From Dictyostelium discoideum (Eukaryota): a stretch of DNA of 64,000 nucleotides. This document shows positions 49,661-57,436 of this stretch, one piece after another. Below the pieces are notes generated by a model that saw only the letters and a program-made list of their open reading frames with translations, searched no databases and was not told where the DNA came from. A program made the position numbers and the translations under genes. Positions within the stretch are counted from its first letter, which is position 1. Each line of letters begins with the position of its first letter. The stretch spans positions 1,632,001-1,696,000 of the forward strand of contig CM000154.2 in assembly GCA_000004695.1 (NCBI GenBank). Direction: 5' to 3'.

Positions 49661-51962
49661 TTACATAATTAATGATTTACATTTTGATTTATAATTTTTT
49701 GAATCAAAATTTAAAGTATCCTTAAAATAAGTTATTAAAAATCTATGATTACAATCTAATGCTAAAGTTACTAAAATTTCAATTAATGGTTGAGCAAGAG
49801 ATGACAATAATGAATAAGTTGATTTTATATATTGAAATACTTTTAATTGAGAATATAGAGTTGATAAATATAATAATCTTTCAATGAATTGACTTTGATT
49901 GGAATTTATAATTAAATCTATACCTTTTGTATCACATTTACAAACGATATCATCCACAATTAATTCATGATCATTCACAGAGATACCGCCAATACTTGTA
50001 TTTGGGATCACTGAAATGTTTGGTGAATTGTAAAATAGTTTACCAGTTTCGTAATAGTTGAATAGTAGTAATGATCTTTGAATACCGTGTTTAAAAATTA
50101 CAAATAGTTTCTTTGGATTTCTAATTATTGATTGAACATATGATATTCTAGTTTCGACAGATTCATCTCTTTTCTTAAATACATGAGGTAGTAATTGCTT
50201 TTGGAATTTTTCTTTAAAATCATCAATATTCTCTACTAAAAAGTTTACTGCCTCAAGAGTAATACTTGAATAACCATTTTTTGTTTTTGTTTCCATTGAG
50301 TTTTGTGGTATTTTTAATTCAAATTTATCTAATCTTAATTTATATTCAATTGGATAATTTATTTTTAAATGGTTTAATAAATCAACTCTTTTAGTGAATA
50401 AAATTCTTAAAATATTATCATTAAGTAAACTATTATTAATATTTGATTTTAAATTTTCAATTAAAAAATTAAATAATTGTAATTCATTTTCTTTTTCGCC
50501 ACAACAATATTTATTATAATTATTATTATTATTATTATTATCATCTGTTTGTTGATTTGGATTGATTGAATAAAATAGGTAATCTTCTTCAATTGGTTGT
50601 AATTTCATTTCGTAATTCTTTAAAAACCATTGAACTAATTGAATATCTGAATTTAAATTTAAAAGAGTTTTAAAGTAATGTTTAATTGTGAATGAACGAC
50701 CACCACCACCAATACCACCACCAGAAATACTTCCATAATCTTTTAAATATTGAATTTGTCTATTTAATCTACCACTACAAAATCTAAATAAAATCGTTTC
50801 AACCTCTTTATGAATCATTTCATCTAAAATTCTTGAATAGAATCTATCTTCTTTAACTTTATTATAACCATTTTGTTCTAATGTTACACATTTATACATT
50901 AATAAATAAAATGAATAATTTTGAATATAATCTTCATCTCCAAAAAATGGTAATAACATTTTAATAATTCTTTCAACATTTTTTTCAAATATAAAATTAT
51001 TATTATTATTATTATTACTACTACTATTATTACAACCTAATTTAAATTTAAATAAAATTGTTGATAATTGATCTTGAGTAAATTTATTCTTTATTTCATT
51101 AATTTCTAATAATGATAAAGTTTCAAAAGTTTCATCTTGATAACTTTCTAAAAATTTATAAAATTTAATATCTTGAACTTCTTCATAATTAATTTTATAT
51201 TTTGATTCATTTTCTTGTTTTGATTTTGAATCTGAATTAATCTTTTTTAAAATTTTCAATTTTCTTAATTCCCAAATTTGATTTAAATTATTTTTATTTT
51301 TTAAATTTAAACCTAATGATGCGATTGTAATACATGAATCTATTAATGTTTCTAATGTTTCATTATAAATAAAATAATCTAATTTATAATAAAATATTGG
51401 TTGTGCTGATGGTGATGTTGATGATGGTAATAATAAATTTGGTGTTGATACTAAATTAATTGGAATTTCAAATTTTAATTGATTAACTAAAAATTTAAAA
51501 ATTTTATTATTATCTAAACCACTACTACTACTAGTACTATTAATATTATTATTATTATTATCTCCACTACCAATTTCAATATTATTAATATTACTATTAC
51601 TATTAATATTACAATCAATTGTTTGTTTCCAAATTTCTAATTGATTAATTTTATTTTTAATATTATTACTATTACTAAAAAAATGATTAAATAAATAATT
51701 TGAAATTTTAAATGCTTTTAATTTAATTGATTTAATTAAATATTTCTCTTTCACTTTAAATAAATTAAATGATTCAACTAAACTTGAAAATGCATAAATA
51801 TTATCATATTGTAAAAATAAATTTATAATTTCTTTTAATATTNNNNNNNNNNNNNNNNNNNNNNNNNNNNNNNNNNNNNNNNNNNNNNNNNNNNNNNNNN
51901 NNNNNNNNNNNNNNNNNNNNNNNNNNNNNNNNNNNNNNNNNNCATTATTAGTTATTGATAGT

Positions 51963-52024
<62 letters not shown>

Positions 52025-52237
52025 TTGATTATTTATATTTGAAAATGATAAATCTCTTCTTTTTTCAATTAAAATTTTTTCTTTTAAAATTGTATAAAAT
52101 TTATTTTTAATCATCCACTCTACATTATTAACTTGATCATATGAATAAACTTTATATCTAAAAGAAACCTTTAAGTGTGATAATATTTTTTTTTTTAAAA
52201 ATATATTTCTAAAAACTTTCCAAAATAATTCTTCCAT
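49661..52237 (-). CDS. Asn-rich hypothetical protein of at least 858 aa. No family recognised. The ORF spans an assembly gap.
   Basis: It is one continuous ORF in the track, but only because the gap N's are translated as X. The real length and frame across 51843-51942 are unknown. There are poly-N tracts, a Gly-rich GGGIGGGG motif, and no introns detected. Confidence 0.45.
51843..51942. other. Assembly gap (100 N) inside the coding region of the 49661-52237 gene.
   Basis: Run of n characters. Confidence 1.
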
Positions 52238-53009
52238 ATTTAATATATTATAATAGTTTTATAAATATAAAGAAACTAAATAAAAAAAAAAAAAAAAAAA
52301 TATTGAAAATGAGGAAAAATTAATTGTGAAAAAAAAAAAAAGTGATGGTGGGAAAAAAAAAAAAATTAATCTAAAAACACTTTTCACAAAACAAAAATAA
52401 AAAATTTGGAAAAAATTTCTTTTAAAAGAATACTTTGAAAAAAAACAAAAAAATATATTTTTTTGATTGCCACCAATTATTTGATGCTATTTTTATAAAT
52501 TTGATTCCAGATGAAAATGGAATACTATTCAGATTTAAAACTTTATTGTAAACAAGAATTAAAAAAAATAATACAAAATAACAATTATAATTAAATTTAG
52601 GGTTAAAAAAAAAATAATAATATAAAAAAACTTTTTTCATAAACAAGTAATATTTTCAAAAAATAATTATTTTATTTTTATTATTACTATAATTATTATT
52701 ATTGTTTTTTTTTTTTTTTTTTTTTTTTTTAATTACCAAAACATTTTTTTATTTTTTTAATTTTTTTTTCATAAATTCACTTTAGTGCGATTTTTTTTTT
52801 TTTTTTTTTTTTATTTTTTTTTTTTAATTTCATTTTAAAATTTAAATTGCCACTGGTTATTGGGGCAATAAAATAAATAAACATAGTCAAATTGTAACCA
52901 TAATATAAAAACACATACATACGTTCACATACACATACACACAACTCAAATAATATAGAGTAATTAGAAGAAATAAATCAAAAAAAAAATATATATATAT
53001 ACTCAAATA

Positions 53010-54089: not shown

Positions 54090-54866
54090 AGGTATGTATT
54101 TAAAGATGGTCAACATATTTTAACAGGTGATTCACTTGGTAAATTAAAAGTTTGGGATTCAAGAAAAGGTAATAAGATTAATTTTCCAGAATCATTTCAT
54201 TATGATGGATGTGTTGATGGATTGGCAGGTAGTTTTTCAAATTCAGCAAACAATGCATTGGTTGACGGTTCACCATTTGAAATCGGTCCAGAGAATAGAC
54301 CAATCAGTGGTATTACAATGTCATCAAGAAGTGGTGGTAGTGGTGAAGATGATGGAAGATTTTTAGCAGTCAATAGTTATGATAATGTAATTAGAGTTTA
54401 TGATCGTTCAAAAGTATCCATTGTATCACATCCATATTCTTTGGCACCAATGAGTTTAATTCATTCATTAACTGGTCATAAAAATAAGAATTGGCCAATT
54501 AAAAGTAGCATTTATGTTGGTAAAGATTATAATCAAGATAGTGTAGTCAAGAGAACTTTAGGTGTTGGTAAATCAATGAATGACGGTTCAAAATCAATCA
54601 TAGATGATGACGATGACGATGATGATGATGAACAACCTGATATTAATCAATCGGTTTTATTAGCTACTGGTTCTGCAGATTACAATGCTTACATCTACGA
54701 TATTGGTTTTGGTAAACAATCTGGTAAAGTCTTACAAAAGTTAGAAGGTCACACCGATAGAGTTTACTCTGTTAAATTTCATCCTTCAGAACCAATTTTA
54801 GCTTCCTGTTCTGCTGATAATACAATAAGATTTTGGACTCCAAAGAAAAAAATATTTAATAATTAA
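53010..54866 (+). CDS. Coiled-coil + WD40-repeat protein (ATG16-like overall architecture; exact orthology not established). Exons are 53010-53483, 53594-53994 and 54092-54866.
   Basis: Exon 1 has a poly-G run then a coiled coil: LEGLQKEVKSLKTKLDNCERENKDLKKSIYDLTIRYD. Intron 1 is AAG|GTATAT (53484) to aaaaaag| (53593). WD repeats follow: GHNASVYTVDFSPCGKMLASGSFDKTVKVWDV, ILSGSYDKTVKLWDL, GHTDRVYSVKFHPSEPILASCSADNTIRFW. Intron 2 is TT|GTAAAT (53995) to tatttttttag| (54091). Phases are 474, 401 and 775 nt. Confidence 0.65.
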
Positions 54867-55074
54867 AAATAATAATAATAAAAAAAACAATAATAATAAT
54901 AATAAATATATTAATAAAAATATTACTTGTATAAGAAATAAGTTTTTTATTTATTCTTTTTTTATTCTTTTTTTTTTTTATTAAACCCTAAATTATAATT
55001 GCATTGATATACTATTGAGAGATGGAGTTTTTAAATCTATTGTTTTTAATCTTTTGGAGTTTTAAAACGGTGAA

Positions 55075-57323
55075 TTAAATTTCCAAAAAAAAAGAACCAT
55101 CAATATTATCTTTATGGTATATAAGAATTTCTTTGTAATTTGGGAATCCTTCATTCTTTATTTGGTAATTTGAAATGATTATTTGTATAATAATTGATTT
55201 GGTATATTTTTTACACATTTTTTGATATGTTTTATATATATTTGAAACAATATCTTTAGTTATATATTTACCACTATTGGTATAATATGTTTTGATAACT
55301 ACCATTAAATTAGTTTTTGAATTATCACTTGAGCTTTCAAGTTTAAAATTTAATCTAATTTCGAAAATGGTGCAATCATCGCACAATAAAGAAATATAAC
55401 CTGGCTCTTCGATTGCAATGGTTTTTCTAGCCTAATCTAAAATATAAATAAATAATAAATACCAAAAATTAAATCCAAACCAATTAAATTAAATTATATA
55501 CATACCCATAAAACAAATTTGAACTATCCTTAACTAAATATAATTGTTTAAATTTAATCATTATATCATTATCATCAATAATATCTCCAAAAATATCTTT
55601 AAGATTTACAATTATTGATTTGTATTTTTGTAATAAATCATTTTTTAAAATTATTATTATTGATGTTATATATTCGAATGAAAATCTTACAAATTTATTG
55701 TCAGGTGGATATCGTGTAATAGTGGATAAATAATCCATTGGTAACCTTGTTGCTATTAAATTCAAATCAACAGTAGGAATTATAATATTGAAAAAACCTG
55801 AATTTGAATTTTGGACAAGATAAATATGTCCCGATTTTGAAATCTCTTTAATTATATTACCAGAAATTACTATTTCCCAACTAACTTCAACACCGCAAAC
55901 GATATGGTATAGCAAGCATTCCAATGTATTCCAATTATATTCAAATTTCTTATTTCTAATTTTGGTTTTAAGCTTTGAACAAGCGACCTATATTAATTTA
56001 TTTGGAAATGTACCATTTTTTGTTTTATCATTATTATTATTTTTGTATAATTTAATATATTTAATTAATTTTTGTAAATATCTTGGTACAACACCAAGGT
56101 TCTTTAAAATAATGTCAAATAAATCATGTTGCAATTCTTCTATTTCACAATTAAGTTTTGAACATATGATCTACTTTGAAGATTGAAGAGACAATATGTT
56201 GATACTGATGTTTTCAAAATCCCATTTCAATAATTCAATATCAGTTGGTCCTGGATTGGTTCCTGTTAAAAATGGAATTATAAATATATTGGTTTCGTCT
56301 GCGAATGATTTATTTCGATTGCATCTGAAAAAACCCAAAAGTTCAACCATTTCTTTTATAAATTCTGGTTTTTTATAATTTTTTGTGCATTGTTCATGGG
56401 CTATTTGAAATTCATCCAAATGTAATAATATCGCAATAGAATTATAATAATTGGTTCTATGCTTTGATGCTATGAAATTAAATGTTTGTTTTAAAAGAAT
56501 TTAAATGATTTTCGTTTGATGATAATTTATCAATTAAATCTGATGTCTGCAAAGAACATCCTAAAATGGATCTTGAGAATAATCTTTTACATAAACCTAT
56601 CTCTGGTGAGTATTTAATATCTTCTTCTATCACTTTGTCACCACCATTGAAATCTATCTTTAAATATATACAGTTTTTCATTAAACAATTAAACGAGTGG
56701 CTTTCTTTTCCTAATGATTCAATATATTTCAAACATTCAATACCCAATCTGGTTTTACCTATTCCTTTACCAGTTAAACAAGTTAAAAATATATGATCAG
56801 ATCTTGATTTGGATTTATTTTTAAATCAAACATTTTTTCAATATTTCCTGAAATCATTCTGATTGATTTTTCTCTTTCCAAAAATGTAAAATCTTGGTCA
56901 TCATGATATTCTTTGTCCAAATTTTCTTTGATATCTTTTTTAATTATTATTTCTAATTGATCTAAACCTATATTTTTTAATTTAAAAAATTAATTTTTAA
57001 TAACTATTTTAATGTAAATTACCAAATACTTACTTTTAACTTCATTTCTTTCAATTTTTTTATTTTTTATCTCTTCCCACATCTCTTCTAATATTGCGAA
57101 ATATGTTGTATCGAGATATTGATTCTTTGGTAAAATACAATCTCCTCTTACATATTCCAAATTTTTTTTAAAATCTTGAACTTCGGAATTAATTGATTCT
57201 AGGTCACTTTTAAAAAAAACTAACTCACTTCTCTCTGAAAGATTAAACTCTTTATAAATTTGTTTATGTAGGTCACAAAGATAAGTTTCATCATTGGTAT
57301 ATTTAATTCTCTTTGTTTTTAAA
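55075..57323 (-). pseudogene. Fragmentary P-loop NTPase-like gene. It has no initiator exon, at least one frameshift, and two in-frame TAG stops, so it is probably a pseudogene. Two introns are still recognisable.
   Basis: The minus-strand ORF opens at an acceptor (aacaaag|AGAATT at about 57323) directly after a TAA. There is no ATG between it and the upstream cathepsin gene. Intron 57033-56968 (A|GTAAGT...atatag|) joins to ...LTCLTGKGIGKTRLGIECLKYIESL... (Walker-A GKGIGKT), which ends in TAA at 56478. The next ORF (56171-56419) is in a different frame. ORFs 56171-56419 and 55484-55924 share a frame but are separated by TAG at 56171-73 and a second TAG near 55985. A 3' intron is TAT|GTATAT (about 55493) to tttagattag| (about 55410), after which the frame continues to 55075. 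Confidence 0.45.
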
Positions 57324-57436
57324 TAAATTTATAAAAAAAAAAATTAAAATAAAAATAAAAAACGGGAATATAATTCCAATTAATTATTGGTGTGGAAAAA
57401 TTATTAATGTGTAAATGAAATTTTATTTGAAACAAT

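Follow-up and report, generated by a model that had tools for sequence, protein, structure and literature searches.

The Dictyostelium discoideum AX4 gene model DDB_G0288561 covers the relic of an ATPase-plus-nuclease-like gene, probably of Crinkler type, that two isolates keep intact

Can a stretch of coding-like DNA from which no whole protein can be read still belong to a working gene? This question is raised by a locus within 64,000 nucleotides of Dictyostelium discoideum AX4 DNA (GenBank assembly GCA_000004695.1, contig CM000154.2, positions 1,632,001 to 1,696,000 of the forward strand), hereafter the window, whose positions are used throughout. The window has a G+C content of 15-33%, with short AT-rich introns, and its three-frame translation reveals a minus-strand coding signal between a cathepsin-like gene (stop codon 57439-57437) and a WD40 gene (end 54866). 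The protein spliced from the cathepsin-like neighbor is an exact match to DDB_G0288563 of AX4, chromosome 5. An earlier note on this DNA, made from the letters alone, had held that the coding signal between the two genes cannot be assembled into an intact gene, and both the translation and the catalog of lesions given below bear this out. We conclude that the AX4 stretch is very probably a unitary pseudogene, i.e.: the remains of a gene that died in place, and that its intact counterpart encodes a 744-residue protein combining an ATPase with a nuclease-like domain. For brevity, we call it the ATPase-nuclease gene.

Intact counterparts were found in close relatives. Word-indexed homology searches, in which the best 8,000 candidates by shared words were compared, yielded only proteins of the species complex among the matches listed, and querying with the family profile brought no further ones. 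Four of these proteins (P0001-P0004), from isolates of D. discoideum and D. cf. discoideum, measure ~700-744 amino acids (aa) and are 66-84% identical to the conceptual protein of the window, while the nearest paralogue in the same list (P0005) is 38% identical and lies at a separate locus. The loci of P0001-P0004 share one gene order in 4/4 genomes: Strumpellin, a 173-aa gene, Bystin, Peptidase_C1, the ATPase-nuclease gene, WD40, an 845-aa gene, and PUF. Two isolates carry intact orthologues, of 744 aa (ACTFIW_012467) and 743 aa, and the reconstructed gene model of the ACTFIW copy consists of three exons separated by introns of 68 and 69 nt. Within the 64-kb window there is one copy only of the relic. 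Synteny across four genomes, together with a paralogue located elsewhere, indicates that the window copy is the orthologue of a single-copy gene and not a decaying duplicate.

Lesions were called by projecting the ACTFIW gene model through a five-way MAFFT alignment of AX4 and the four syntenic orthologues. When P0001-P0004 were searched against the window with tblastn, aa 14-744 were covered, in five pieces and three frames. The features of the locus, with the evidence for each in brackets, are the following.

55046-57332, minus strand: whole relic, orthologous to ACTFIW_012467 of 744 aa (bounded by the first base that aligns with the orthologues and by the orthologous TAA stop)
57321-57332, minus strand: junction of a ~415-bp deletion (blastn: window 57321 corresponds to L001 5619, window 57332 to L001 6035)
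57034-57320, minus strand: remnant of exon 1, encoding the N-terminal header (...KRIKYTNDETYLCDL...EVKS) (translation, tblastn)
56968-57033, minus strand: intron 1, conserved, GTAAGT...ATATAG, 89% A+T (kept in all four orthologues)
56826-56827, minus strand: 4-bp deletion after 56827, the orthologues' ATTC being gone; frameshift 1 (alignment)
56751-56771, minus strand: Walker A motif GKGIGKT, intact (G181 and K182 nearly invariant in 54 family members)
56501-56503, minus strand: 1-bp insertion at ~56502 (TTT-A to TTTAA); frameshift 2 (alignment)
56405-56428, minus strand: Walker B motif LLHLDEFQ (in the family, D295 is invariant and E296 nearly so)
56255-56272, minus strand: sensor-1-like strand FLTGTN (G346 and T347 nearly invariant)
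56171-56173, minus strand: nonsense codon TAG (orthologues have TCA, Ser, or TTC)
55988-55990, minus strand: nonsense codon TAG (Glu in all four orthologues, as GAG or GAA)
55437-55505, minus strand: intron 2, conserved, GTATGT...TTTTAG, 87% A+T (kept in all four orthologues)
55427-55430, minus strand: point at which 53 bp are missing, six bases into exon 3; source of frameshift 3 and of a TAG that follows directly in frame at 55429-55427 (alignment)
55279-55365, minus strand: core of the C-terminal nuclease-like domain, FEIRLNF...VVIKTYYT (family motif D-x-R...Q-x-K-x-S)
55085-55093, minus strand: T-run of 9 (7 in the orthologues), a +2 insertion; frameshift 4, leading to a premature end, LEI and a stop, at 55075 (alignment)
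55046-55048, minus strand: original stop TAA in the orthologous register (tblastn)
55273-56350, minus strand: main matched part of the annotated AX4 model DDB_G0288561 (277 aa, Q54IS2) (mapping of the annotated protein)

Every catalogued lesion is specific to AX4 when compared to the four orthologues. Altogether, the AX4 copy bears four frameshifting indels (-4, +1, -53, and +2), two TAG nonsense codons, and a third in-frame TAG that results from the 53-bp deletion. At the 5' end, the ~415-bp deletion (L001 5620-6034), whose breakpoint is ambiguous inside a T-rich run, removed intergenic spacer and promoter DNA, the ATG and the first ~11 codons, and the start-codon columns of the alignment hold no ATG in the window. 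The missing DNA is present in the orthologous loci L001-L003; in L004 the spacer is shorter and the ATG is kept. At the other end of the gene, the Asp of the C-terminal domain that is conserved family-wide has become Glu in AX4 alone (GAT to GAA).

These results confirm the outline drawn in the earlier note and change much of its detail. It had described a degenerating, 5'-truncated gene for a P-loop nucleoside triphosphatase (NTPase): the Walker A motif LTGKGIGKT is found and the full protein is not encodable. The in-frame TAGs that it reported are present at 56173-56171 and 55990-55988. Its two introns are both real (57033-56968 and 55505-55437), yet the acceptor it had chosen for the second (gattag followed by GCT) is wrong, as the true ttttag lies at 55437, and this choice hid the 53-bp deletion. 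What had been read as one frame switch corresponds to four frameshifting indels (-4 after 56827, +1 at ~56502, -53 after 55430, and +2 in 55093-55085). The relic had also been thought to start at a splice acceptor, while the ATG of the orthologues lies only ~12 codons upstream of 'KRIKY' and was removed by the ~415-bp deletion; a start exon spliced from further upstream, which the note had named as a possible refutation, does not exist in the orthologues. Lastly, the relic does not end at 55075 but runs on to the orthologous stop at 55048-55046.

We then considered how the AX4 copy has evolved. With the two D. cf. discoideum copies as reference for polarizing substitutions, 37 non-synonymous and 9 synonymous substitutions plus one stop were assigned to the AX4 branch, a ratio of 4.1 compared to a random expectation of 3.98. 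On the sister branch, from which the ACTFIW and ACTFIR copies descend, the count was 21:15 (non-synonymous to synonymous) and departs from neutral (p=0.003). Fisher's test between the two branches gave p=0.049. The counts are small; they fit an AX4 copy that was already dead during most or all of the AX4-specific branch, and intact copies under moderate purifying selection.

An obvious concern is that the lesions are sequencing or assembly errors and that the AX4 gene is intact. AT-rich homopolymers are error-prone, and the +1 and +2 lesions do fall in short A or T runs. Yet an independent chromosome-level assembly (GCA_054883475.1, strain tag ACTFIT, L006) has the same sequence over the 2,456 bp between 57445 and 54990 (100% identity), indicating that the AX4 lesions are not sequencing errors: in the 11.7 kb compared, AX4 and ACTFIT are separated by a single mismatch and four gap openings, none of them inside this interval, and the TAGs that the earlier note proposed to re-sequence are kept. 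Besides, the 415-bp and 53-bp deletions and two substitutions to TAG are no homopolymer artefacts, and the substitution pattern is neutral. We therefore give the error explanation next to no credence. A different possibility is that the remnant still makes a shorter working protein, the 277 aa of DDB_G0288561, with the helical and nuclease-like parts only. This model is protein-coding in NCBI, UniProt, and dictyBase-derived records, and has GT..AG boundaries. However, its first codon is an internal Met (56350), it spans the 53-bp deletion, and its end lies past the true stop. Its 'intron' (56174-55960, 215 nt) is 79% A+T, compared to 87-89% in the real introns; it is coding-like, corresponds to coding sequence in every orthologue, and jumps exactly both TAGs. 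The upstream promoter region is deleted, the AX4 branch has accumulated substitutions neutrally, and the Asp shared by the family is changed. A different pipeline, used for the newer ACTFIT annotation (L006 5001-8692), gave quite different models for the same DNA: one of 631 aa joins the relic to the cathepsin gene, and a further gene of 285 aa is called by itself. Such conflicting models are typical gene-caller output on a pseudogene. A working short protein is thus quite improbable, and DDB_G0288561 is a model patched around the lesions of a dead gene, wrongly listed as working. We found no paper mentioning it.

The earlier note itself favored a recent duplicate of a multigene NTPase family, now decaying, and raised expression through TAG read-through as a more unusual option. 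The species complex does contain paralogues, namely P0005 and P0019, the latter with a header of B-box type. Against a duplicate stand the single copy in the window, the syntenic orthologue in four other genomes, intact in other isolates, and the distance to the nearest paralogue, which is only 38% identical and located elsewhere. As for read-through or an alternative code, the orthologues have TCA and GAG at the TAG codons, and the four frameshifts and the missing start codon would remain beyond repair; the adjoining cathepsin gene ends in a standard TAA. We regard either version as very improbable. The AX4 locus is a pseudogene of the ordinary sort, and the interest of its family is moderate.

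AX4 is not alone in having lost the gene. An intact copy at the locus is clearly seen in 2/8 genomes only, those of ACTFIW and ACTFIZ. The ACTFIR copy (L002) has an inserted base (+1) just 5' of Walker A and a deleted one (-1) 895 bp further on (L002 6592 and 7487), and in the ACTFIY copy (L004) slippage between direct TATCCA repeats has deleted 17 bp (L004 ~7648). The corresponding annotated proteins lack Walker A (P0002, ACTFIR) and 36 residues (P0004, ACTFIY) because the gene caller masked the frameshifts and the deletion with invented introns. In D. citrinum (L007) there is no trace of the gene at the examined locus, and in D. dimigraforme (L008) only a 156-bp remnant is left (~75 codons). 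Within the D. discoideum species complex, losses of the ATPase-nuclease gene have recurred, and the gene is dispensable. In this respect it resembles the unitary (polymorphic) pseudogenes of dispensable conflict or immunity genes: the AX4 gene is dead in place with its introns kept, its syntenic orthologues are intact, its substitutions are neutral, and other lineages carry independent lesions. The sole unusual point is that the AX4 copy is annotated as a live gene in a reference genome.

Two further observations concern gene order and the paralogue. The block containing the WD40 gene is inverted in D. citrinum (L007 6921-9115) and in D. dimigraforme (L008 8064-10474) with respect to all genomes of the D. 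discoideum complex; the 156-bp remnant of D. dimigraforme is inverted together with the block, so that the rearrangement accompanies the loss of the gene. In ACTFIY, the orthologue of the paralogue P0005 (L009 4700-7204; compare L005 6001-8584) is split into models of 198 aa and 341 aa, and contains in-frame stops and changes of frame, one of them gap-free at codon ~649. It is probably a second, independent pseudogene of the same family.

What kind of protein has been lost? The living protein begins with a header of ~100 residues that evolves fast, followed by an AAA+ P-loop ATPase, a helical/winged-helix region and, at the C-terminus, an alpha/beta domain. The conceptual protein, the intact orthologues and their relatives have no meaningful match in Pfam, NCBIfam, or PADLOC. 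An exhaustive profile search of 1.84 billion representative proteins recovered 151 at E<=1e-3, and the named members are all eukaryotic: dictyostelids (Cavenderia, Synstelium), Arcella, Luapelamoeba, Capsaspora, Endogone, and the glomeromycetes Ambispora and Gigaspora. The check for a P-loop family that the earlier note had called for thus has a positive answer, albeit not in the form of a Pfam family.

The ATPase of the living protein shows a Walker A motif of the form GxGxGKT, a Walker B motif hhhhDEFQ and a sensor TGTN. Across 54 family members, the residues G181 and K182 (Walker A), D295 and E296 (Walker B), G346-T347, and R239 are invariant or nearly so. In an AlphaFold2 model (predicted local distance difference test, pLDDT, 80.4), the predicted ATPase fold lies in the AAA+ neighborhood of ORC/Cdc6, STAND, and TnsC, with fold comparison figures of ~12 for Cdc6/ORC, 11.6 for TnsC, 11.5 for ZAR1, 11.2 for MuB, and 10.1 for CED-4. 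STAND proteins (Apaf-1, CED-4, ZAR1) were matched structurally, though no better than ORC/Cdc6, TnsC, and MuB. A sequence search of solved structures with the family profile returned P-loop-level noise only (best E=0.045, ORC1 E=0.056, TnsC E=0.5). The family therefore shares Walker A, Walker B, and sensor motifs with AAA+ ATPases such as ORC/Cdc6, the archaeal Walker-ATPases 2qen and 2fna, or the transposition proteins TnsC and MuB, but differs from them in having no significant sequence match to a solved chain and in the extra N- and C-terminal domains of the Dictyostelium protein.

The core of the C-terminal domain is predicted to be beta-beta-beta-alpha-beta and carries a signature, D-x-R...Q-x-K-x-S...(T/S)N, that is found family-wide, with the Asp in 42/44 sequences and the Gln in 33/42. 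We take this succession of elements, with its D...QxK arrangement, to resemble that of TnsA-type nucleases of the restriction-endonuclease fold.

A link to a known class of proteins came from the fungal relatives. Two Gigaspora relatives annotated as crinkler match the Pfam Crinkler N-terminal domain (PF20147), with E=7e-17 for P0176 and E=8e-7 for P0158. The ATPase profile of our family matches P0042, the cluster representative of P0176, at E=2.6e-15, and P0158 ('crinkler family protein') at E=4.9e-4. Likewise, a hidden Markov model of the C-terminal domain matches residues 671-767 of P0176 at E=2.5e-27, with the LQIKYS motif included. Having both an ATPase and a C-terminal domain homologous to those of Crinkler-header proteins from Gigaspora places the Dictyostelium module with the Crinkler/RHS-type (CR) class, to which the living protein probably belongs, judging from these sequence matches. 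The commonest architecture of CR effectors comprises a header, an NTPase, a helix-turn-helix (HTH), and a restriction endonuclease (REase) (PMC5289972, summarizing Zhang et al., 2016), and the domain order of the Dictyostelium protein is the same: header, P-loop NTPase, helical/winged-helix region, and D...QxK domain. The likeness extends to distribution, the family being present in free-living eukaryotes and glomeromycetes, and to the headers, which are swapped among relatives (B-box, SAM, and others). Header swapping is typical of CR-type proteins. By analogy with this class we infer a nuclease activity and a role in conflicts for the living protein, which would be an NTP-regulated, nucleic-acid-acting protein of the 'CR effector/toxin' type of biological conflicts. 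In the literature we found no work linking Crinklers to Dictyostelium in substance.

Swapped headers were observed in several members of the family. P0019 and P0030 (D. discoideum ACTFIR and relatives) have a B-box zinc finger on the same ATPase module, recognized by motif and, in one case, by a Pfam match. Single family members have a SAM, GGDEF, or Tim17 domain at their N-terminus.

An alternative reading of the living gene is that it encodes a STAND/NLR-like immune sensor and not a Crinkler-type effector module, in line with the STAND/NB-ARC resemblance proposed in the earlier note. Part of this resemblance stands, in that the modelled fold is in an AAA+ neighborhood that includes STAND. 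The gene also evolves rapidly and is polymorphic for loss, a presence/absence variation as seen in NLR genes that likens it to STAND NTPases (Apaf-1, CED-4, plant NLRs, Avs). However, neither the query nor 54 relatives have an NB-ARC or NACHT match in Pfam, nor does the conceptual protein have one to KAP, with only a weak AAA_16 match in one relative and a weak AAA_22 match in another; and, as said, the structural scores of STAND proteins are no better than those of ORC/Cdc6, TnsC, and MuB. A C-terminal repeat sensor (leucine-rich repeats (LRR), WD40, TPR) is absent, with no repeat-family matches, and the model shows instead a compact alpha/beta domain, nuclease-like and with the D-x-R...Q-x-K signature common to Crinkler-header proteins. 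A STAND-like sensor seems unlikely on these grounds, and a CR-type module remains the reading that we prefer.

Several points weigh against the combined picture of a dead gene of CR type. The ACTFIT strain may be related directly to AX4, in which case its assembly confirms the sequence and not an independent origin of the lesions. Both 1-bp indels in the ACTFIR copy (L002) could be assembly errors instead, and there may be residual expression of AX4 fragments, such as the annotated 277-aa model. In the living protein, the profile of the C-terminal domain had no credible match in PDB or Pfam (Dis3 E=0.23), so that databases do not confirm a restriction-endonuclease fold, and the Dictyostelium orthologues carry K-T-Y or S-T-K in place of Q-x-K. 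With this altered triad, even the living protein may be inactive as a nuclease. Its header is also unlike the ubiquitin-like (Ubl) header of Crinklers: it has no Pfam match at E<=10, and hhalign against the Gigaspora headers gave a probability of 0.08. A low-confidence AlphaFold2 run (5 sequences, pLDDT 44) drew the header as beta-beta-alpha-beta...beta, which is compatible with a beta-grasp but no proof of it. In contrast to CR effectors, finally, the Dictyostelium family is known here from sequence and predicted structure and not from secretion or a host target, and the window copy is dead.

The ATPase-nuclease gene stands out from its surroundings by its divergence. In sliding windows, lineages differ by 12-19% within the gene and by 2-9% in most flanking bins, intergenic ones included, and the edges of this divergence island are those of the gene. 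Rates were compared to those of three neighbors: the cathepsin-like gene, the last WD40 exon, and one Bystin exon. Between L001 and L003/L004, synonymous divergence (dS) is 0.28-0.31 in the ATPase-nuclease gene and 0.05-0.14 in its neighbors, and non-synonymous divergence (dN) is 0.13-0.14 and 0.002-0.008, respectively. This leads to a dN/dS of 0.44-0.61 for the gene, compared to 0.02-0.14 for the neighbors among non-AX4 copies. The least constrained parts by dN/dS are the header (0.64-0.83) and the C-terminal domain (0.62-0.90), and positive selection is not shown, dN/dS being below 1 in every domain. The inflation of rates is roughly uniform over all sequence pairs, a pattern for which weak constraint and/or a locally raised rate is no worse an explanation than ancient balanced alleles. 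Gene conversion from a paralogue was also considered as the source of the island and rejected, the paralogue being only 38% identical.

The most likely history is the following. An ancestral, dispensable CR-type ATPase-nuclease gene would have adjoined the WD40 gene. In the AX4 lineage, the ~415-bp deletion would then have taken its promoter and start codon, unless another lesion came first, the order of lesions being a reconstruction. Neutral drift would have followed, adding four frameshifts and two nonsense substitutions, and changing the conserved Asp. A more ambitious reading is that the locus holds a presence/absence-polymorphic 'conflict' gene of social amoebae, whose living product, a Crinkler-type ATPase-nuclease, would serve as a toxin or an immune factor and have its variability maintained by selection, and for which AX4 would be a natural null. 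A sharp divergence island with repeated loss is a pattern typical of conflict genes. We hold this reading to be speculative and rather doubtful; if it were true, the island, the repeated losses and the fast header and C-terminal domain would be the outcome of an antagonistic co-evolution, whose other party may be kin or cheaters, prey bacteria, symbionts, or viruses, and not of simple dispensability.

Several practical consequences follow. The reference annotation should be corrected, since DDB_G0288561 (Q54IS2) is not a genuine gene model. The D. discoideum species complex possesses an unannotated, Pfam-less family of proteins, probably of Crinkler type, that join an ATPase to a nuclease-like domain. 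And as the working copy at this locus is found in wild isolates and not in AX4, studies of conflict, immunity, or toxins need the wild alleles.

Some minor features of the surroundings were also recorded. A second, smaller divergence island, the sole exception to the low divergence of the flanks, lies at ~51500-53000, where AX4 differs from the other isolates by 9-21%, compared to 1-5% nearby. It spans the 5' end and upstream region of an 858-aa open reading frame (49661-52237, minus strand, with no Pfam domain), and AX4 is seemingly more divergent there than the other isolates are from one another. In the cathepsin-like gene DDB_G0288563 (57437-58684), AX4 has TAHRNKNF where all other isolates have TARRNENF (H and K in place of R and E), and its dN/dS is 0.2-0.5 between AX4 and the isolates and ~0.1 among the other isolates, from small counts. 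The last exon of the WD40 gene (54560-54660, plus strand) encodes a run of eight Asp and one Glu (DDDDDDDDE), an unremarkable low-complexity insert typical of Dictyostelium.

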